This document shows positions 806 to 12,800 of a stretch of 64,000 nucleotides of DNA, piece by piece; within the stretch, counting starts at the first letter, position 1, and every line of letters starts with the position of its first letter. The notes beneath the pieces were generated by a model. The model did no database searches and was not told the origin of the DNA. It worked only from the letters and a program-made list of their open reading frames with translations. Source of the stretch: a virus. The stretch lies in the IMG/VR virus record IMGVR_UViG_3300043411_000715, positions 5,492 through 69,491 of that record; one strand, 5' to 3'. Position numbers and translations under genes: made by a program.

Positions 806-1583
806 AGGCGCTGACGTTCCAGCTCCCGATCCGCGCTTGATCGACGCTCAGATCAAGAGCTTGGGTATTCAGGATCAGGCGATCCAGTACATGATCGACG
901 CATCGAAGGACATGGCGCCGCAACAGCGCCAGATGATGCAGGACTCGATCGACCGGTCGAAGGTGCTGTGGCAGCAGTCGCAGGAAGACCGCGAGTTCGC
1001 GCTGGGCAAGCGGGCGCAACTGGCGGGCATCCAGAACGCCATCGTGCGAGACGCCAATTCGTTCAACACCGAGGATCGGCGCGCCGAGCTGGCCGGCGAG
1101 GCCATGGGCGACGTGAACCAGGCGTTTGCCAATGCGCGCGGCCAGAGCCAGCGCGAAATGGCGCGCATGGGCGTGAACCCGAACGATGGCCGACAGGCGG
1201 CGATGAGCGGCCAGATGGCGGCCCAGCAGGCGCTGGGGCTGGCCACGGCCGGCAACAAGGCCCGTGTGCAGGCGCGCCAGGAGGGCTACCAGCTCACCGA
1301 CCGGGCCAACAACGTCTTGGCAGGCTACCCGTCGATGTCGGCCAGTTCGGTCGGGGTGGGTGCGGGCGTGGCCGGCATGGGGCAGCAGGCGCTGTCGCAG
1401 GGCCAGGCCGGCATTCTGGCCCCCAGTCAGGCGATTGTCAGCGGGGCCGGCGCAATGTCGGCCAATGCCGGCAACATCTGGGGCCAGCAGAACCAAGCCT
1501 ACCAGCAGGCGCAGCAGCAGGACGCGGCGGCTGGCGGCATGTTTGGCAGCGCCCTGGGGACCATCGGCATGATTGCGATGTGA
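798..1583 (+). CDS. Putative DNA ejection/internal virion protein
   Basis: MGKG..PAPDP N-terminus, Ala/Gln/Gly-rich helical sequence, Gly-rich hydrophobic C-terminus; position. Confidence 0.6.
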   Translation: MGKGADVPAPDPRLIDAQIKSLGIQDQAIQYMIDASKDMAPQQRQMMQDSIDRSKVLWQQSQEDREFALGKRAQLAGIQNAIVRDANSFNTEDRRAELAGEAMGDVNQAFANARGQSQREMARMGVNPNDGRQAAMSGQMAAQQALGLATAGNKARVQARQEGYQLTDRANNVLAGYPSMSASSVGVGAGVAGMGQQALSQGQAGILAPSQAIVSGAGAMSANAGNIWGQQNQAYQQAQQQDAAAGGMFGSALGTIGMIAM

Positions 1584-1584
1584 A

Positions 1585-2328
1585 ATGACGGCTCTTGAAA
1601 CAGCCGCCGAGGCATTCAACCGTCACACCCGAATCGCCTTCCAGTTCTCTGGTGGGCGCGATTCCACCGCTGCCCTGCACGTGCTGCGCCCGCTGTGGGA
1701 CAAGATGGCGATCTACACCCTGAACACGGGGGATGCGTGGCCTGAAACGCTTGGCGTCACGGCCGCCATGGAACAACTGGTTGGCCGGCCGTTCACGGTC
1801 ATCCGAAGCGACGCACCGACGTACTGGCGGGTCATGGGGAACCCCTCCGACGTGGTGCCGACCGGGCGCACGCCCATGGGTTTGCTGGTGAAGGATGGCG
1901 AGCCCATTTCTGATCGCTTTGCCTGCTGCACGGCCAACATCATGCGCCCGATGCACGAGCGCATGGCGGCGGACGGCATCACCCTGATCGTGCGCGGCAC
2001 GCGGGCGGCGGACTACGTGGTTCCTCCGGTGCTCTCGGGTGAGCGCGACGATCAATTCGAGTACCTGTACCCGATCGAAGACTGGTCGGATGCGCAGGTG
2101 GCCGAGTACATCGAGCATCACCAGCTTCCGGTGTCGCCGGTCTACGCCGCTGGCGCGCCGCACGGCAGCGACTGCCTGCACTGCACGGCCTGGTGGGACG
2201 ACGGCCGCCTGCCGTACCTGCGCGAGCACTACCCGGTGGCGTTTCAGCGGTTCGAGCGCCATGTTGCGCGCGTGCATGACGCGATCACCGAGCAATTCAA
2301 GCCACTGACCGAGGGGGCCAACTCATGA
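1585..2328 (+). CDS. PAPS-reductase-family protein
   Basis: PP-loop 'QFSGGRDS', 'NTG', 'CC', 'YPIEDWSDAQV..YI', 'DCLHC'. Confidence 0.85.
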   Translation: MTALETAAEAFNRHTRIAFQFSGGRDSTAALHVLRPLWDKMAIYTLNTGDAWPETLGVTAAMEQLVGRPFTVIRSDAPTYWRVMGNPSDVVPTGRTPMGLLVKDGEPISDRFACCTANIMRPMHERMAADGITLIVRGTRAADYVVPPVLSGERDDQFEYLYPIEDWSDAQVAEYIEHHQLPVSPVYAAGAPHGSDCLHCTAWWDDGRLPYLREHYPVAFQRFERHVARVHDAITEQFKPLTEGANS

Positions 2329-3797
2329 GTAGAGGTTTCAACAGCAATTTCCTTGCCGGCCTGGTGTCTGGCGGCCTGGGCACGTACCTGAAAATGAAGG
2401 ACGTGGAACGAGCCGACGCACGCGAGAAGCGCGAGCAGGAGGCGGCTGAATACCTGGCAGAGCAGCGTGGACGCGAGCGCACGCGCCAGCGAAACATCGA
2501 CGCGGCGATGGATGACTATGCGGCGATGGAGGGCTCGGGGCAGGTTCTGGACAAGAACGCCAGCGGGTTCTCGCCGTCGCAGGTGACGCAGCTCATGGGC
2601 CAAGGCGGACAGGCCGCGGTAGACGCCGAGGCCACCAAGATCGCCGATGCCGAGATGGCGGCCGGCGGCCCGCCCAGCAAGGTGTCGTCGATGATCCCGA
2701 ACTTTGCCGATCCGGGCGGCGCTCCGGCGCAGGGCGCGCCCACGGTGGCCATGCGCGACGCCACCAACGCGGACCGCATCGGCGGCCTGCAGCGCATTGC
2801 CCTGGCCTCGCGCGATGCCGGCGCCATCGAGCGCCTGGGGCAGGCGAGGATGCAAGCCAAGTACGGGCAGGAGGACATGGCCGCCGCCGCTGCCGTGATG
2901 AAAGACCCGACGGGACCGCAGGCGCAGGCGCTGGTCGGCCTGGTCAAGCAAAGCGTGCCGGGCGCCAGCCTGGACTTCGACAATACGACCGGCAACTTTG
3001 TCGGCTCGATCGGCAACAAGGCGGTGAATCTGTCGCCGGCCCAGCTTGGGCAACTGGCCGTGGCGCAGAACCAGTTCAGCCGCGCCGATCCGGCCGCGCT
3101 GCAAACCATCGCCGGGATCGACAAGGACTTGGCCGGCGCGGCTGCCGGGGCTTGGCAAACGCAGCTCAAGATGGCTGAGTTCGGGCAAAAGCAGAAGTAC
3201 CAGGGCGCGCAGATCACGCACATGCAGAACCAGGACGCGAACCAGGCGCTGACCGCTGGCGCGAATGCCGTGCACATGCAGCAGCAAACCGCCGACTTGC
3301 AGCGCAAGGCGGCCACGGAAGCCGAAACCCGCGGTGTGGTGGAGCGGCTGTACAAGGCCAAGAACCCGAACGCGAGCGACGACGAGGTAAAGGCGGCCGG
3401 CCTGCGCGTGATGGATGGCCTGGTGGACAAGAACGCGCCGGCCGAGGTGAAGTTGGCCAGCGCCATGGTGAAGTTCGGTGTTGCCCCCGACATGAAAACG
3501 GCGCTGGAGCGCTCCATGTCGAGCAAGGAAGCATCGCCCGACAAGCTGCGCGCCGATGTCTACAAGGCAGCGCTCACGGCCAATTTTGGCGACGCCAAGA
3601 AAGCGGAGGCGGTCGCCGATCAATTCATGGCGTACATGGCCCAGTTCGGCAAGCCGAGCACGTCCAACCCGCAAGCCGTCACGCCATCCAGCGTCACTGG
3701 CAGACGAACCGGGCCGACCGCCGGCGCCGTGGTGAGCGGATTCCGCTTCAAGGGCGGCAATCCGAATGACAAGGCCAACTGGGAACCTGCGAAGTAA
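2325..3797 (+). CDS. Putative ejection/internal virion protein
   Basis: 490-aa Ala/Gln-rich ORF with C-terminal 'GFRFKGGNPNDKANWEP' motif, directly before the giant gene. Confidence 0.6.
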   Translation: MSRGFNSNFLAGLVSGGLGTYLKMKDVERADAREKREQEAAEYLAEQRGRERTRQRNIDAAMDDYAAMEGSGQVLDKNASGFSPSQVTQLMGQGGQAAVDAEATKIADAEMAAGGPPSKVSSMIPNFADPGGAPAQGAPTVAMRDATNADRIGGLQRIALASRDAGAIERLGQARMQAKYGQEDMAAAAAVMKDPTGPQAQALVGLVKQSVPGASLDFDNTTGNFVGSIGNKAVNLSPAQLGQLAVAQNQFSRADPAALQTIAGIDKDLAGAAAGAWQTQLKMAEFGQKQKYQGAQITHMQNQDANQALTAGANAVHMQQQTADLQRKAATEAETRGVVERLYKAKNPNASDDEVKAAGLRVMDGLVDKNAPAEVKLASAMVKFGVAPDMKTALERSMSSKEASPDKLRADVYKAALTANFGDAKKAEAVADQFMAYMAQFGKPSTSNPQAVTPSSVTGRRTGPTAGAVVSGFRFKGGNPNDKANWEPAK

Positions 3798-3803
3798 AGG
3801 CGC

Positions 3804-6800
3804 GTGGACATGACCAACCCCTGGGAACAAGACTGGAGCGGCGCCGCGCCGCAGGCGAACGACAAAGCCCCTTGGGAGCAGGATTGGGGCAAGCCGTCCG
3901 ATGTGACCAAAGGCGGCGTGCTGGATACCGTGCGCGACTACACCCTGGCGGGCCTGAGCAAGGCGGGCCAAGGCAGTATGCAGGCGATCGCCGGCATGGC
4001 CGATACCGTGTCGGCGCCGGTGGCCAAGACGCGCGCCATGCTGACGGGCGCGGCGGCGCTGGCCGATCGCTGGCTCCCGGGCGACATCAACCCAACGTTG
4101 CAGGAGTTGGCGCAGGATGACGCCGCCGCGGCCGAGGCCAAGGCCCAGCAGAACGCCCTGAACAACCCGCTGGCGCGTGGGACGATGGCGTTGCGCGACG
4201 CCGCGCGCGAGCGCGGTCAGATGCTTCAGGACTTCGACAAGGAGTTCAACCCGGAGTTGGTGCGCCAGGAAGGGGAGATGTCCAAGGCGCAGGGCTTTTG
4301 GGAGAACGCCAAGGCCATCAAGGACAACCCGCTGGCGTTCTATGGCAACCTGATGCAATCGGCCCCTGCCATGGCGACCGGCATCGGGATGAGCAGCGGG
4401 GCCGCGCGCGCTGCTGGCGCGCTCGGCAAGGTTGCCGGCATGAGCGACGAGGCCGCGCTGGCGCTGGCCACGCGCAGCGCTGGCGCTGTCGGCACAGCTT
4501 CGGAGGCGGCGCTGTCTGGCAGTCAGGCGCGCGAGGGCATCCGATCCAACATCCTTGCAACGCCACATGCGCAGCTTGCCGAAAATTCGCCGCGCTATCA
4601 GGAGTTGATGTCGCAACCCGGCATGACGCCAGCGCTGGCGCGCGACACGCTGGCCAACGAGGTGAGCACGTCGGCGTCCTTGCTGACATCGGCGGCAACC
4701 GCGCTGGGATCGACTGTCACCAACCGGGTGTTCGGCAACCTGGAAGCGCAAATGATCGCCGGCAACAAGTTGGGCGCCAAGGACGCGCTGCTCAAGATGC
4801 CGGCCAAGGAAACGGCCGAGGAATCCGCCCAGGGGATGGGCGAGGACTATGTGCAGCATCGGGCGATGTTGCCGGCCGACAAGACCAACGCCTACGACCC
4901 GGGTGGCTCGTTTGTGCAGAACGCTGCGGCCGGCCTGGCCATGTCCGGGCCTGGGTCGGTGGGCGGCTACGCGCGCCAGCAGTACAACGCCTCGCGCGGG
5001 CTGAACCCGGACGGAACCAAGCCGGCGACCCCGCCTGCCGCGCCGCCGGCCGACGTGGCCATGGACATTCGATTCCCTGATGGCACGGTATCCAAAGACC
5101 CCGCTGGCGGCGCGTTCGACTACGCCAGGTATGACCAGTACCGCACAGCGCTGGAATCTGGCGGCCGGGCCGATGCCAAGAACCCGAACAGCTCGGCCAC
5201 CGGCCTGCACCAGTTCACCGAGGGCACGTGGCTGGCGATGGTCGAAAAAGCCAAGCCGGCCTGGGCCGAAGGCCTGAGCCGCGACCAAATTTTGGCCGCG
5301 CGTACCGATGCTGGCAAGTCCACCGAAATGGTGCGCGTGCTGGACAGCGAGAATTCCGCGCGCCTGCGGGCGGCCGGGCAGCCGGTGAACGAGCACACCC
5401 TGTACGCGGCGCACCACTTCGGCTCCGGCCGGGCCATCGACTTTGCCAAGGCGGGCGACGACGCGTTGATGAGCAACATCTTGTCGCCGTCGCAGATGCG
5501 GGCGAACCCGTACCTGGAAGGTCTGACCAAGGCGCAGGCGATTGCCAACTGGGACAGCCGCGCGGGCGGCGCGGCGCCCGCGGCAAGCCCAGCGACAAAG
5601 CCGGCGGCCGAAAGCGACATCGCCAGCACCGAAACCGACGCCGCGGCCGAGGCCCTACAGCCGCGCGAGGCCGCGGACGTGGACAAGGTGTCCGCGCTGG
5701 ACAAGCAGGCCCAGGCGCTGCAAAGCCGCTGGAACGACCTGAACAAGCCCGAGTACGGCCCCGCCTTCGACACCGAGCGGGCCGATTTGCAAAGCCAGAT
5801 CGCGGCGCTGCGCGGCGAGCGTGACCAGCTGGCCCGCGACTGGCCCAAACCCGAGTACGGCCACCCCACCAGCTTCGCCACCGAATCCGGCGTGCGGCTG
5901 GATGGCCGCTATGCGCTCGTGGATGCCGATGCGCTGGTGACCAGCCACAACTCGCTGCTGAACAAGAACGGCGCCTACCCGCAGGAGCTGCAGCCGCGCG
6001 AGCGTGACCGCGCCGCCAGCGAAGCGCAGATTTCGGGCATCGTCAACAAACTTGACCCGGCCCGCCTGGGCATGAGTGCGGATGCCGCCACTGGCGCGCC
6101 GATCATCGGCGCCGACGGCGTGGTGGAGTCGGGCAACGCCCGCACGATCGCCCTGATGCGCGCCTACGAGGCCAACGGCCAGAAGGCGGCCGAGTACCGC
6201 CAGTTCCTGAGCGACAACGCCAACCAGTTCGGCCTGAGCGCTGAGCAGGTGGGGGCGCTGAAGAACCCGGTGCTGGTGCGCGTGCGCGACACACCCGTGG
6301 ATCGTGCCGAGTTCGCGCGCCAGGCCAACGCCAGCACGGTGGCCGCCATGTCGCCGTCGGAGCAGGCGCGCTCGGACGCGCAGCGCATCGACAACATGGA
6401 GGACTTGACGCCCAACGACGATGGCGACTTTGCCACCTCGCGCGACTTCATCCGCCGCTTCATGGCGCGCCTGCCGATGACCGAGCAGGCCGGCATGGTG
6501 GATTCGTCGGGCGCGCTGTCCACGGCGGGCTACGCGCGCGTGCGCAATGCCGTTCTGGCCAAGGCCTACGGCGATTCGCCGGTGTTGCAGCGCCTGACCG
6601 AAAGCATGGACGACAACCTGCGCAACATCAGCAAGGCGCTGGTGATGGCGGCGCCCGAGGTGGCAAAAATGCGCAGCGCGATCGACGCGGGCGCGCGCTT
6701 CGACGTGGACATCACCCCTGACCTGATGGCTGCCGTGACCGAGCTGTCGCGCCTGAAAGACGCCGGCACCAGCGTGCAGGACGCCATCGCGCAGGTCGGC

Positions 6801-9800
6801 ATGTTCGGCGAATACTCGACCGAGGTCCGCGATCTGCTGCAATTCCTGGCCGACAACATCCGCCGGCCGCGGCGCATTGCCGATTTCGTGCGCGCCTACT
6901 ATGCTGCGCTGGATCAGGCCGGCGACCCCAACCAAGGCTCGCTCCTGGGCGAGAAGCAGCCGCCCGCCAAGGGCGATCTGATGACTGCCGCGCGCCAGGA
7001 CGCGCAAGGAGAACTGCTCGATGGCAATCCCGCAACCGCAACCCGATCCGCAGCAGATGCAGCGGGCGATCAAGGCCGTGCGCAAGCTGGCCCTGAAGGT
7101 CGAGTCCAGCGCCCGGATGAAGCGCGCCGTGGCCATGGCGATCAAGTCGATGGGCCTGCCCGATCCGAAGCCGCAGTAGACAAGCAGCCGTCGCCGACCG
7201 GTCAATGGCGCACCTTCCCGCCCGACATGGGCAGCCTGGGCATTCCGCGCGCCGAGATGCCGCAGATCAAGGGCGAGCATCGGGGAGCATTCATCCAGTT
7301 CCTGAAGGGCCGCGGCATCGAGGCCAGCGAGCAGCACGAGGTTGACGCTGCCAAACTCAAGCCGACGCAGGCCGAGTTCTCCATGGCCAAGGTCGAGGGG
7401 TTCCTGAAGAAGGGGCTCGGATCGGGTCGCTCCGTTCTGGTGTCGTCCGATGGCTACGTGCTGGACGGACACCACCAGTGGATGGCGCACGCCGTCGCCA
7501 ACCAGGACATCCCGGTCATCACCCTGAACGCGCCGATGCGTGAGCTGCTGGCGGTGGCGCACGAGTTCCCGAGTGTGCAGCGCAGCGAAGGCGCGGCCAA
7601 CGACCCGAACGCCAGCCGGCGCGAAGCGGTGCAGGACTTCAAGGCCGCCATGGCCGATCTGGCCGACATCGCCACCAAGTGGCAGCGCGCGGCCCTGGTG
7701 CCCGAGAAGGACGCCGATCTGATGCCAGTGCTGGCGCGGCTGTTCGATGCCGCCATCCGCATCGTGGGCACCGATCTGAAGGCGGCCACGCGCTGGGTGA
7801 AGGACCAGCTGCGCGCGAACCCGGCAACCAAGAAGCTGGTCAACAAGGTCGAGCCGATGAGCTTTCGCAAGGCGGCCGAGCAGGCGCTGGAGGCCATGAG
7901 CGAGCCACCGGCCCAGGGCGGGCTGTTCGACAGCCCGGAGCAGGCCAGCGAGGCGGTGCAGGGCGACATGTTCGGTCTGCCCGAGGCGCGGCCCTATGCG
8001 CAGTTGAGCGCGGACGAAAAGGCGGCGTTTGATCGGCGGCAGGGCATTCGAGCGTCGGATCGTGGGCGCGTCAGCGCGGCGAACTACGACACGGCGCGCG
8101 ACAACTACAGCCCGCCGGCGGTCGAATCGTTCATGCCCAAGGAGGCGCTGGCGGCGGCCGACAAGGTGATTGCCGAGCATCAGCCGGAAAAACGAAATGA
8201 TGCAGCGCCTGCGCTTAGTGTCGAAGATCGCGCACGCGCCGAGTCTTTGCTGGCACCGGTTCTGGCGAAGGCGGCCGAAGCGAAGGCTGAGTTCGATCAG
8301 AAAGTGATCGACATCGCCCAGCGCGTCGGAGCGCTGGGGCAGCAGTTGGCGCCTCTCAAGGGCCTGAAGCGCGGTGCCGAGAAGCTGGTCGAGGAAAAAT
8401 TCGACGTCGGTGGCATGAAGGACTTGCTGCGTTCGACGATCGTGGTGCGCAGCTACGCCGATGCCCAGGCCGTGGTGGATGCGATCGAGAGTGAGTTCAA
8501 GCTGCTGCGCGCGCCCAAGAACCGCACGGGCGACGTGCCGCTACGCGCCCAAGGCGAGGATGTGGCTCCAGAAGACCCGGCGAAGTACGCCGGCTACAGC
8601 GACATCATGGTCAACGTGGTGATGCCCAACGGCACGATCGCGGAAATCCAGATCAACACCCCCGACATGTTGGCCGCCAAGGGCGCGCAGGGGCACAAGC
8701 TATATGAGGTGCTTCGCGCTGAACCGAAAGGTAGCGCGACGTTTGACGTGGTGAATGCGGCGAGCCTGGCGTTTTACGCCGAGGCGCGGGCTGCGGCGAG
8801 AAATTCCTCTTCGGTCATGCGAGACCAGTCGGCTGGCCAGAACCCGTTGGCGGGTTTGAGCCCTTCCCAGGGGGCTTTCTCGTCAAGCCAGAACCGCTTG
8901 CCGTCCGGGAACTCGACATACGACCGCTCGATGCCGTCGCCGTCGGCGCGATCCATGCCGAAAACGCAGCCGGGCGGGAATTTGTCAGGGACTTTCATGG
9001 GTTCCTCCGATGCCTCCATTGTACCCGGCCAGGGCGCGGGACGCAGCGCCACTAGTGCAGCCGCGCAACAAAGTCAAGCGCAAAATCGCGCCTCGCGCAA
9101 CAATTCGCAGAACGACCTGTTTGGAGCCCAAGATGCCAGTGCTGAAGGAAACCGTCCGCCGGGCGATGCAGGCGCAGGCGCCGCAGCTGTACCGGCAACT
9201 GGAGCGCAGCGGCAAGCTGGCCAGCTTCGTGAAGGAGCAGGCGGACGCGCTGAACGCGGAAATCCACGACGCGGTGATGCAGCGGATGATGGAGCCCGAC
9301 ATGCAGGCGCTGCCCGATCTGGAGCGGCCCAAGCGGGCCGCGGCGCTGGATCAGGCGCACACCGAAATCGCGCTCGCGCAGATGGCGTTCCCGTCAGCCG
9401 AGACATCCCCGCCAAGTCCGGGCGAAACTACAGCTTCTCAGGCCCCGACGACCTGAGCTACACCGGCTCGTGGGCGAAGAAGGCCGAGGCCAACGTCGCC
9501 GCCGTCGAGCTGCTGCGCGACCTCATCGCCGACAAGCGCCAGGCCACGCCCGATGAACAGGCCGTGCTGGCCAAGTTCGTCGGCTGGGGCGCGTCGGAGC
9601 TGGCCAACAACCTGTTCGGCGACAAGCTGAACGCTCCGGCCCAGGCGCTGCGCGAGTACGAATCAGCCAGCAAGGAAATGGACAAGCTGGGCCGTGGCTC
9701 GTTGTCCAAGGGCGGACAGTACCGCGGCCAATATGCCGACCCGGGCTATTACCAGGCGGTGGGCGTGTTGCGCGCGGCGGGCAAAGTCGCCCCGCACGAG

Positions 9801-12800
9801 TTCCCGCCGAGCGTGACGCGGGCGCAGTTGGACGCGGCCAAGCCGGACGCGGGCGTGCAACGCTGGATCGCCCTGCGCGATCGCCTGAAGGTGGCGATGA
9901 CGCCGACTGAGTGGAAGGAAGCCGCGCGCACCACGCAGTACGGCCACTACACCAGCAAGGCGGTGGTGCAGTCCATGTGGGCGGCCATGCAGCGCATGGG
10001 CTTCAAGGGCGGCGCGGTGCTGGAGCCGGGCGCCGGCATTGGCGTGTTCCCGGGCCTGATGCCGGCCGACGTGGCGGCCAATTCGACCTACACCGGCATC
10101 GAGTACGACACCTTCACCGGCAACGTGCTCAAGCAGCTGATGCCCGACGAGCGCATCGTCATCGACGGCTATCAGAACGTGGCGCTGCCCAAGGACTTCT
10201 ACGACGTGGCGATCGGCAACCCGCCGTTCGCCTCGATGTCGGTGCTGAACGACAACGAGTACAAGCGCAACGCCTTCAAGCTGCACGACTACTTCTTTGC
10301 CAAGACGATCGATCGCGTAAAGCCGGGCGGCCTGATGGCCTTCGTCACCAGCCGCTACACCATGGACAAGCTGGACGACAAGGCGCGGGCCTACCTGGCC
10401 GAGCGCGCCGATCTGGTGGGCGCCATCCGCATGCCGCAAACGGCGTTCAAGCAGAACGCGGGCACCGAGGTGGTCACCGACGTGCTGTTTCTGCGCAAGA
10501 AGGTGCCGGGCGAAGTCTTCGAGCACGCGCAGCCCTGGGCCAAGTCCACGCCGATGCAGGTGGACGGCGAGAGTTACCCGGTCAACGAGTATTTCCACGC
10601 GCACCCCGAGATGGTGTTGGGCACGCACAGCAGCCGGGGCAGCATGCGGGCGGCCAACGAATACACGGTGCTGCCGGGCGAGGGCGACATCGAAGCCGCT
10701 TTTGCCAAGGCTGCGGCCACCTTGCCGGCCGACGTGTACCGCGCCGAGATCGGCAGCGCCGCGCAGGCCGCGCAGGTGCGCGAGATCGACTTCAATCCGA
10801 CGGCGAAGAAGGAAGGCAACTTCTACGTCACCGACAAGGGCGTGCTGATGCAGCGCGAAGGCGGCGCCGGCCTGCGCGTCGAGGGCTTGAAGCCGGCCGA
10901 CGAGGCGATCGTGAAGGCCTATGTGCCCCTGCGCGACGCCGTGAAGCAGGCCCAGTATGACCAGCTCAATGGTGGGCCTTGGGAGCAGTCCCTGGCCGCG
11001 CTGCAGGCGGCCTACAAGGCGTTCACCGACAAGCACGGCCCGCTGTTGCAGGCCAAGGCCTACACCGTCACGACGACCGAAACCGACCCGGAAACCGGCG
11101 AGGCGGTGAAGGTCAAGGACACCCGCTATCGGCACCCGCTGGAGGCGTTGCTGCGCTCCGACCCGGACGCCTACCTGACGCTGGCGCTGGAGCGCTTCAA
11201 CGAGGAAACCGGCCAGATCACGACCACGGACGCGCTCACCAAGCGCGTGCTGGAGGCGCCTGTGCACGCGCGGGTCGAGACGGTGCACGACGCGCTGCTA
11301 ACCTCGCTCAATGACCTGGGGCGGGTGGACATCGCGGCCGTGGCCCATGCCGTCGGCCTGTCGCAGAAGGACGCGATCGAGGCCATGGGCACGGCGATCT
11401 ACCAAGACCCGAGCGCGGGCTGGCAGATGGCTGACGAATACCTGTCGGGCAACGTGAAGAAGAAGCTGGCCGAGGCGCGCGCCGCGGCGCAGTCGGACGC
11501 CCGCTACGAGCGCAACGTTGCCGCGCTGGAAGCGGCGCAGCCGGCCCCGAAGACCCCGGCCGACATCAACGTCGGGCTGGGCATGAACTGGGTTCCGGCG
11601 CCGTTCTACGAACAGTTCCTGCACGACCTGGCCGGCACGACCGTGAGGGTCAACTTCAACACGGCGACGCGCGAATGGTCGGTGGAGAAGGTCGATGGAC
11701 ACAAGACCCCGGCGGCCATTGCCGACTGGGGCACGGGTGACCGCGACATTGCCGATTTGCTGGTGCACGCGCTCAAGGGCACGCCGATCGACATCTCGCG
11801 CACCGAGATCGCCGACGGCAGCAAGAAGACCGTGAAGGATCACGCGGCCACCGAGGCCGCGAACGAAAAACTCAAGGCGCTGCGTGAGCGGTTTGAGGGC
11901 TGGGTGTGGGAGAACCCCGAGCGCTCGGACAAGCTGGTGCAGCTGTACAACGACAAGTTCAACACCACGGTGCCGCGCCGCTTCGACGGCCGCCATCTGA
12001 CGCTGCCGGGCACGACCAGCACGGTCACGGTGTTCGATCACGTCAAGCGCGGGGCCTGGCGCATCATCCAGTCGGGCAACACCTATCTGGCCCACGCCGT
12101 TGGATCGGGCAAGACCTGGCAAATGGTGATCAGCGCCATGGAGCAAAAGCGCCTGGGGCTGATCAAGAAGCCCATGTTCGTGGTGCCCAACCACATGCTG
12201 CAGCAGTTCGCGTCGGAGTGGATGCAGCTGTACCCGGCCGCGCGCCTGATGGTGGCCGACGAGGAGAACTTTCACACCAACAACCGCCGCCGCTTCGTGT
12301 CGCGCGTGGCGCTGTCCGACCTGGACGGGGTGATCATCACCCAGTCGGCATTCAAGATTCTTGACCTGGCCCCCGAGTTCAAGGCCAAGATCATCCAGGA
12401 GCAGCTTGACCAGCTGGAGGCCTCGCTGCACGATGCCGATCCGAGCCTCAAGCCGGGGCAGAAGTCGCGCGATCCGACGGTCAAGCAGATTCAGGCCAAG
12501 ATCGAGAAGCTGGAAACCCGGCTGCAGGCGGCCATGTCGAGCGAGGGCAAGGACAAGAACGTCATGTTCGACGAGCTGGGCGTGGACATGCTGTACGTCG
12601 ATGAGGCGCACGGCTACCGCAAGCTGGACTACGCCACCTCGCGCAAGGTCAAGGGCCTGAGCAGCGACGGCAGCGCCATGGCCTTGGACATGTACGCCAA
12701 GGTGCGCTACCTTGCCGAGAAGAACCCCAAGCGCAATCTGGTGATGGCCTCGGGAACGCCCATCACCAACACGATCGCCGAGCTGTACAGCCTGCAGCGC

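Follow-up and report, generated by a model that had tools for sequence, protein, structure and literature searches.

A TnpV-like gene predicted within the giant DarB-like gene of a virus, read in a second frame and nested likewise in related phages and actinobacterial plasmids

We analysed a stretch of 64,000 nucleotides (the window) covering positions 5,492 to 69,491 of the IMG/VR virus record IMGVR_UViG_3300043411_000715, and within it a small open reading frame (ORF) that lies inside a giant DarB-like gene. The source record is 69,491 bases long and was rated complete by CheckV. DNA similarity of the window to public phages was weak and limited to a short stretch (23 records, 60-80% identity), and it was confined to the giant genes annotated as 'DarB-like antirestriction' in Burkholderia phage DC1 and many Ralstonia phages. 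The corresponding gene of the window is a stop-free ORF whose first-listed start is GTG. Its upstream part matched the Pfam ddrB-ParB domain (E = 2.7e-37) and, weakly, a RelA/SpoT-like domain. Its downstream part matched an Eco57I N6-methyltransferase (MTase; 27.3 bits, cut-off 25.3), Helicase_C (24.9 bits, cut-off 23.5) and, slightly below the cut-off of 24.9, SNF2-rel_dom (23.8 bits), as in SNF2/ResIII-type helicases. An NPPF motif was seen in the giant-frame translation. An N6-adenine MTase and an SNF2/DEAD-type helicase are therefore found in a single polypeptide.

The small ORF is contained entirely within this coding sequence (CDS), on the same strand and in the +1 frame relative to it, and possesses translation-start signals of its own, with a Shine-Dalgarno (SD) motif in the arrangement GGAG-N6-ATG. 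In the giant frame, the bases of this GGAG belong to the codons for Gly and Ala in a Phe-Gly-Ala stretch. The small ORF ends with the TGA at 9454-9456, and its last 10 codons run into the conserved motif at the N-terminus of the MTase, an Asn-Tyr motif that starts at 9426. Analysis of G+C content by codon phase revealed the pattern of the giant frame up to about position 8740 (third position 0.8-0.97, second position 0.33-0.53) and that of the small ORF between 9155 and 9365 (third position 0.83-0.97, second position 0.27-0.53). The signature of the small ORF spans 9133 to about 9390, and the giant-frame signature resumes at about 9420-9425 (third position 0.80-0.97). Over the small ORF (9133-9420), the giant frame encodes a low-complexity sequence rich in Gly, Ala, Arg and Asp, and a scan of this frame between 9133 and 9564 found no ATG, GTG or TTG. 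These results confirmed what the original prediction, made from the letters of the window, had reported of the start signal, of the 107-residue protein that it quoted, of the G/C-ending codons of the small frame and of the low complexity of the giant one.

Because the coding signature switches frame before the stop of the small ORF, a sequencing frameshift or a pseudogene was suspected at first. This was ruled out, as four of the five database homologues of the window's protein keep a length of 107 residues and the layout is universal. The database protein P0006 (100 residues) is identical to the window's protein over approximately the first 66 residues and wholly divergent thereafter, which suggests a frameshifted variant or a faulty assembly of its contig. 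An intron or another RNA element was also rejected, since Rfam returned no match at E ≤ 1 between 8000 and 10200.

Table 1. Features of the locus in window coordinates, and plasmid loci in coordinates of the named locus.
Feature	Position	Strand	Basis
Giant stop-free ORF, DarB-like polyvalent protein gene, 5,003 codons	3804..18815	+	ORF list, Pfam, DNA similarity
Second embedded ORF (probable gene), 74 residues + stop	8774..8998	-	ORF, sequence, codon-phase G+C, homologues, AlphaFold2
Spacer between the two embedded starts	8999..9132	.	Lengths, G+C, alignment; giant frame open throughout
Shine-Dalgarno GGAG of the embedded gene	9123..9126	+	Sequence; 6 nt upstream of the ATG at 9133
Embedded TnpV-like gene (predicted), 107 residues + TGA	9133..9456	+	Translation, codon-phase G+C, homologues, family tests, AlphaFold2
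Start of the conserved MTase module, giant frame	9426..10595	+	Motif position, alignment, start-codon scan
Trimmed helicase loci, Micrococcaceae plasmids	L092 5895-6357; L094 5838-6435; L097-L099		RefSeq/PGAP starts

To find relatives of the locus, viral contigs were searched using the N-terminus of the MTase, not the small ORF, as bait, and the best 80 of 98 viral loci were taken, each with up to 2.5 kb of upstream sequence. A hidden Markov model (HMM) built from the window's copy and the first homologues identified a homologous plus-strand ORF in 75 of these 80, usually ending at the start of the MTase. All 75 ORFs were in the +1 frame relative to the MTase, and the MTase frame was stop-free to the start of the locus, with the exception of L061, in which a stop lies upstream of the ORF. 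In the other five loci, the same +1 ORF with the family pattern was recognized by eye, one copy being truncated by the end of its contig. Thus, neither homologues nor conservation of the +1 frame in related phages, whose lack would have spoken against the original prediction, was wanting. Among the 80 loci are the IMG/VR copies of three named phages, all with the embedded ORF: those of Bcep22 and BcepIL02 are identical to the corresponding RefSeq stretches, and that of DC1 matches RefSeq over the 600 bases compared. The RefSeq records of DC1, Gervaise, Bcep22 and BcepIL02 list the giant CDS only, leaving the embedded gene out in all four.

Dereplication at 80% identity left a non-redundant set of 58 small ORFs. 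The number of stops expected in the giant frame across these ORFs was estimated either from the frequency of small-frame codons ending in T in harmless contexts or from the stop rate of the -1 frame elsewhere in the same giant genes. With the loci treated as independent, 119.9 (context) or 168.1 (background) stops were expected and none was observed, including in loci with a G+C content of 0.36-0.54, for each of which 5-11 were expected. The small ORF starts with ATG in 54 of the 58 loci. An SD motif, scored as GGAG, GAGG or AGGA at -18 to -4, precedes the start in 40 of the 58, compared to 12.6% of random positions and 9.2% of other ATGs of the +1 frame. In several loci, a small-frame stop lies 0-4 codons ahead of the ATG, which makes entry into the small frame by frameshifting from the giant frame unlikely. 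Furthermore, the giant frame across the ORF contains no ATG, GTG or TTG in 33 of the 58 loci, and ATG in only two, suggesting that the MTase module is not started separately. The placement of the gene just before the MTase domain, as first described, holds in the window but is not universal: in L010, L011 and L027 (about 1500-2500), about 1 kb of giant-frame sequence separates the ORF from the MTase match. Extra giant-frame sequence of this kind, about 0.5-1 kb long, was observed in L010, L011, L027, L022 and L030. The embedded gene therefore marks the linker and not strictly the boundary of the MTase.

We then compared the constraint acting on the two frames. Per-site differences within 71 moderately close pairs were 0.186, 0.172 and 0.266 at the first, second and third positions of the small frame, respectively, compared to 0.127, 0.093 and 0.288 over 300 codons of the neighbouring, single-coding MTase. 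The second position of the small frame corresponds to the third position of the giant frame. Since this position was the least variable, coding by the giant frame only is rejected. Moreover, the small frame showed fewer amino-acid differences than the giant one in 58 close pairs (0.245 vs 0.332). The giant-frame peptide over the ORF consists of 19.8% Gly, 13.4% Ala, 11.5% Arg and 9.2% Asp, with less than 1% of Phe, Tyr, Trp, Met and Cys taken together, and T occupies only 5% of the third positions of the small frame. These patterns indicate that the giant frame over the ORF is kept open and hydrophilic and is otherwise loosely constrained, which fits the needs of a disordered tether. Together, the stop count, the family homology and the codon-position pattern indicate that selection maintains both frames of 9133..9456, and the stretch is probably read in both.

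The assignment to TnpV holds for the family and not for the window's copy taken alone. The window's protein (P0001) stays below the gathering score of Pfam TnpV (PF14198, 27 bits), its only Pfam match being DUF4527 (E = 0.0099), but P0007, a homologue sharing 62% identity with it, reached 27.7 bits. PF14198 was matched by 27 of the 58 embedded ORFs at E ≤ 0.01, with a best E-value of 4.1e-08. Alignment with hhalign of the 58-member profile to five plasmid TnpV homologues (three named 'TnpV protein' by PGAP and two 'hypothetical protein') gave a probability of 93.5% and an E-value of 2.4e-07 over 88 columns. The top match in the Atlas was a TnpV cluster at 0.89, which we counted as a lead only. 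PHROGs returned matches for only two of the 58 members. Pairwise identity within the embedded family is 14-37%, and the family signal is still recognizable. Searches with tblastn returned no match at E ≤ 1 for the window's small protein against phages and plasmids, nothing for the L073 copy of the embedded ORF against plasmids and nothing for P0020 against phages.

A profile search against 1.84 billion representatives yielded 1,136 proteins at E ≤ 0.001. Among the 150 matches listed, lengths ranged from 81 to 408 residues, nearly all being 81-194 and most about 85-140, and none was giant. The family thus appears as a small stand-alone protein (about 100-130 residues) and not as a domain of a larger one. 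As many of these matches come from short contigs, stand-alone gene calls there say little about genomic context. AlphaFold2, run with the 58-sequence alignment, predicted five helices (residues 2-15, 17-26, 29-52, 55-58 and 65-83) with a mean predicted local distance difference test (pLDDT) score of 88.0. The helical core covers residues 2-83 (about 9136-9381), and the tail from about residue 86 is of low confidence; this tail is the part that overlaps the MTase N-terminus, and its length varies from 0 to about 40 residues in relatives. The family is acidic, with a median isoelectric point of 4.97 and a net negative charge in 51 of 58 members. Therefore, the small protein is, as far as profiles and models tell, an acidic helical protein of the TnpV family of about 85 residues, followed by a disordered tail. 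A Leu-Phe motif resembling a clamp-binding motif just upstream of the embedded start was found in only eight of the 58 phage loci, and the idea was dropped.

Outside phages, a search with a TnpV-positive representative found 17 records of Micrococcaceae plasmids. In all seven records inspected, the TnpV gene lies directly ahead of a large helicase-type gene (five annotated as 'helicase-related protein' or 'putative helicase', two as 'hypothetical protein'), which bears out the tie to DarB-type MTase-helicases that had been foreseen. The six full-length helicase genes encode 1,606-1,829 residues, the Citricoccus one being shorter, and the one protein compared shares 34% identity with the module of the window over 1,078 residues. 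RefSeq/PGAP starts these genes at a TTG or GTG located downstream of TnpV, so that a conserved N-terminal peptide (26-30 residues) is lost together with part of the N-terminal motif of the MTase. Nevertheless, the helicase frame stays open back through the entire TnpV gene to an upstream ATG, which is preceded by GGGGGAG in four of the seven records. From this ATG, the long frame encodes the conserved peptide of about 26-30 residues and then a Gly/Arg/Glu/Pro-rich sequence over TnpV. The annotation of pTC2 from 2006 (CP000476) already contains the long ORF (1129..6618). None of the upstream domains of the phage giant gene is present in the plasmid MTase-helicase genes.

Scanning genomes with the alignment of plasmid TnpV sequences yielded 80 loci, of which 78 were evaluable. 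The -1 frame was open across TnpV in 69 of 71 Actinomycetota loci (exceptions L155 and L166), and in nearly all of these it runs into an MTase-helicase, with HMM E-values down to 1e-172. Over 31 non-redundant actinobacterial loci, in a count from which L155, L166 and four loci cut by contig ends are left out, no stop was observed in the long frame and 86-88 were expected. An upstream ATG of the long frame was found in 26 of the 31, followed by the conserved peptide in most. By contrast, all seven Clostridia loci (G+C 0.25-0.36) carry TnpV as a free-standing gene, with no MTase-helicase within 2.5 kb in any frame. Hence, of the free-standing homologues upstream of MTase-helicases that the original prediction proposed to look for, the free-standing genes exist, but none of the seven adjoins such an enzyme. 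Two contigs titled Vibrio cholerae strain 35D (L123 and L132) carry an Arthrobacter-type TnpV/MTase-helicase locus at 63% and 62% G+C, and one of them has match figures equal to those of an Arthrobacter contig; both are probably contaminants of the 35D assembly.

Since the plasmid frames read through TnpV in genes devoid of the phage upstream domains, the nesting is, on this comparison, older than the phage fusion, and the phage lineage appears to have put extra modules ahead of a gene that was already nested. The nested form accordingly seems to mark one lineage of MTase-helicases common to actinobacterial plasmids and these podophages. This disagrees with the history proposed initially, in which a stand-alone gene was overprinted when upstream domains were fused in the phage. 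The observation itself is thus confirmed and its interpretation partly supported, with an evolutionary account that, judging from the sequences compared, needs correcting.

Taken as a whole, these data are probably best explained by a dual-coded, nested TnpV-like gene of old layout whose product would be a partner of the MTase-helicase. By analogy with Rz1 within Rz, ribosomes would initiate independently at the internal site, and infected cells may make both the giant virion protein and a free TnpV-like protein. The long frame has no start signal nearby and must be read from upstream; it would be translated through the small gene as a hydrophilic, aromatic-free linker joining the ParB-like modules to the MTase/SNF2-helicase module. 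The small protein may then act on or with the MTase-helicase as a partner in assembly, packaging or control of activity, and nesting would guarantee co-inheritance and co-expression of the two. The functional partnership is suggested by strict linkage across two phyla of hosts, and we put the chance that the TnpV-like protein works on or with the MTase-helicase at a little under even.

The precedent for a small gene embedded in the manner predicted here is Rz1, which lies in the +1 frame of Rz. Like the TnpV-like gene, it is complete, entirely contained in a larger gene of the same strand and provided with its own ribosome-binding site, and the products of the two genes act together. Unlike Rz, the gene that harbours the TnpV-like ORF encodes a giant protein of virions with more than 4,500 residues, in which the overprinting frame forms a predicted disordered linker; the embedded family also exists in free-standing form, and the nesting is common to plasmids of another phylum. 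Furthermore, the expression and the partnership are predictions here. The giant protein itself resembles DarB of P1 and the giant proteins of Bcep22, BcepIL02, DC1, JC1 and Gervaise, all of which combine an N6-MTase and an SNF2-type helicase in a very large protein. The JC1 member, gp69, was found in virions with 51 unique peptides and 15.61% coverage (Table 6 of PMC9144972), in a proteomics table that covers annotated proteins only. The same paper places Rz1 of Lessievirus in the embedded class, a precedent within this phage group, and reports a serine tRNA in Bcep22-like phages; ARAGORN found no tRNA in the 64,000 bases of the window, outside which the first 5.5 kb of the record falls.

Several observations weigh against a dual-coded gene whose product is a partner of the MTase-helicase. 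The small frame shows only modest purifying selection: third-position differences are 1.48 times the mean of the first two positions, compared to 2.62 times in the neighbouring MTase. The loci are related to one another, and the totals of expected stops consequently overstate their independence; in the actinobacterial set, moreover, the two loci with a closed frame were not counted. Eighteen of the 58 starts have no simple SD motif. Concerning the family, the window's protein gave no match to PF14198 even at E ≤ 10, NCBIfam returned nothing for any of the 58 members, including no match to a TnpV model, and Foldseek found no match for the predicted structure in the PDB at E ≤ 0.001. Expression of either embedded ORF (that of TnpV type or the antisense one described below) is a prediction from sequence, and the functional link is drawn from gene linkage. 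Finally, MTase-helicases without TnpV exist, showing that the enzyme does not universally need such a partner. One is encoded by a Roseomonas plasmid and has a similar N-terminal peptide with a linker of only about 50 residues; a small gene upstream of it was considered as a TnpV relative and found not to be TnpV-like. Another is darB of P1, as no TnpV-like ORF is present in any frame of positions 9001-31000, around darB and ddrB. In P1, a small helper gene, ulx, is located downstream of darB.

Against this background, four other explanations were weighed. The main functional rival is that the nested gene is real but has an independent role, as a stand-alone anti-defence or host-directed effector, for instance a decoy for a restriction or defence protein. 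The acidity of the family (described above) would suit such a role, as would the anti-restriction annotation of the harbouring gene, the MTase-helicases devoid of a TnpV-like gene, the clostridial TnpV genes with no MTase-helicase nearby and the apparent promoter of its own in a subclade. We nevertheless consider it unlikely, because the ORF accompanies the MTase-helicase in all 80 phage loci and in 69 of 71 actinobacterial ones, a strict linkage that is hard to explain without a functional tie, and structure searches revealed no similarity to any known anti-restriction fold. A DNA-transaction factor of the Xis type, as proposed in print for TnpV of Tn4451, which would bind DNA and direct a recombinase or the processing of the element's DNA, is far less probable. 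It is suggested by a paper on Clostridium difficile elements, which treats TnpV as a transposon protein with a postulated Xis-like role, 'postulated to be involved in excision' from its likeness to lambda Xis (PMC3158075), and by a serine-recombinase gene directly upstream of TnpV in two plasmid records. Yet the family is acidic and not basic, and no recombinase gene adjoins the ORF in the window or in the phage loci, which sit inside a virion-protein gene. Structure searches recognized no DNA-binding fold; the best Z of a wide VIA-align search, 6.2, does not rise above the noise expected of helical models. In Tn4451, moreover, the recombinase TnpX alone is sufficient for excision. The likeness to TnpV of Tn4451-type transposons and plasmids consists of the size (about 80-130 residues), the profile relationship and the carriage on mobile elements, and it is limited by the window's copy falling below every Pfam threshold and by the clostridial genes being free-standing.

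The remaining two explanations both seem to us hardly credible. A programmed -1 frameshift of the IS3 type would start translation at 9133, slip near 9390-9450 and produce a TnpV-MTase-helicase fusion. As with orfA and orfB of the IS3 family, a small upstream ORF is followed by a long overlapping ORF in the -1 frame, the coding signature switches about 40 nt ahead of the small-ORF stop and no canonical start of the MTase module lies nearby. Unlike in that family, however, there is no conserved slippery heptamer: an X-XXY-YYZ sequence occurs in the last 100 nt of only three of the 58 loci, each time a different one, and nowhere in the window's ORF. The tail of the small ORF varies from about 0 to 40 residues, and Rfam, as noted, recognized no RNA element around it. 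Above all, frameshifting does not require an open giant frame across and upstream of the ORF, yet this frame is open and conserved far upstream, with no stop where 120-168 were expected. Conversely, only the giant frame might be translated, the small ORF being a relic of a captured TnpV left open by chance or composition. Alternative frames are indeed often open in high-G+C DNA, the window's copy has no significant Pfam match and deposited annotations give the giant CDS only. Such a relic does not account for the persistence of the ORF, its ATG (54/58) and its SD motif (40/58, compared to about 10% in controls) at 36-54% G+C, for a family signal recognizable at such low pairwise identity, for the low variability of the second codon position of the small frame or for the confident fold predicted from the alignment. 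The dual-coded, nested gene thus remains the explanation that we favour.

Upstream of the TnpV-like gene, the window contains a second embedded ORF, in antisense orientation. Its ATG (8998..8996) is preceded at 5 nt by GGAGG (9008..9004 on the minus strand). Between 8774 and 8998, the G+C content at the first codon position of the minus strand exceeds that at the second, consistent with a minus-strand gene. Homologous minus-strand ORFs of 67-99 residues were found at the same place in 16 further loci, forming a subclade that includes the window. The start codon is ATG in 14, TTG in one and GTG in one of these, and in most it is preceded by a motif of the GGAGG or GAGG type. Five database homologues are 72-75 residues long, and an alignment of 22 sequences contains nine invariant columns. 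In 17 of 17 loci, the antisense ORF has its third codon positions in register with those of the giant frame, and no giant-frame stop was observed over the antisense ORFs compared to 31.5 expected. AlphaFold2 predicted a five-strand sheet with a helix (mean pLDDT 87.4, predicted template modelling score 0.76). Foldseek found no match for this model in the PDB at E ≤ 0.001, no Pfam family was assigned, and the substitution pattern failed to separate the antisense ORF from the giant frame (amino-acid differences of 0.513 and 0.541, respectively). On these features of sequence and predicted fold, the antisense ORF is probably real. The ddrB gene of P1 holds an annotated internal antisense gene, iddB (L101 26577-26975), which has no sequence similarity with it.

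In the 16 relatives, the spacer between the two embedded starts measures 71-89 nt and is AT-rich, with a G+C content of 0.38-0.56, compared to 0.54-0.66 for the loci. Inspection by eye revealed a TAT(A/G)NT hexamer facing the TnpV-like ORF in all 16 and, in most, a TGTA(G/C)C motif that gives a -10-like hexamer when read on the opposite strand. The spacer of these relatives resembles a back-to-back promoter lying within the giant ORF. Compared with loci L008-L033, the window's spacer is longer (134 nt), is not AT-rich and has a diverged right-hand hexamer, and a simple sigma-70 scan of 8500-9700 predicted no promoter. It also contains, on the minus strand (9098..9078), a hairpin with a T-rich run behind it. 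A more far-reaching reading would make 8774-9456 a three-way coding hub in the linker of an injected giant protein: besides the tether, it would encode the TnpV-like protein in sense orientation and, in antisense, a beta-sheet protein of about 74 residues, and a back-to-back internal promoter would drive the two small genes. The TnpV-like protein would be an obligate, ancient partner gating the MTase-helicase, for example by keeping it inactive or export-competent until DNA entry. The linker would have arisen from translating through the older gene, the long frame being the overprinting one, and the layout would have spread between actinobacterial plasmids and proteobacterial podophages. This combination is possible, but we regard it as rather doubtful.

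Only a few out-of-frame nested genes are known from phages, most of them short-range. No demonstration of a function for the TnpV family was found in the literature examined, and among titles on TnpV and helicases none bears on the nested layout. TnpV-bearing elements have been described as inserted in snf2 genes of integrative and conjugative elements (PMC9815147). The main text of a survey of polyvalent proteins (PMC5512222) does not mention TnpV, overlap or frameshifting, and the passages of the JC1 paper on DarB and on embedded and overlapping genes (PMC9144972) describe no internal gene.

The embedded gene is conserved in every viral relative sampled (80 loci) and in 69 of 71 actinobacterial loci, and it sits inside one of the largest phage proteins known. 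It is absent from the four RefSeq phage records checked, and PGAP trims the plasmid helicase genes. Gene callers that do not allow overlaps will go on overlooking the small gene or cutting the large one short. The locus would represent a clean natural case of a disordered linker encoded by reading through another gene. It provides a first clue from genomic context for the uncharacterized TnpV family and may offer a testable way into the control or packaging of DarB-like anti-restriction enzymes.

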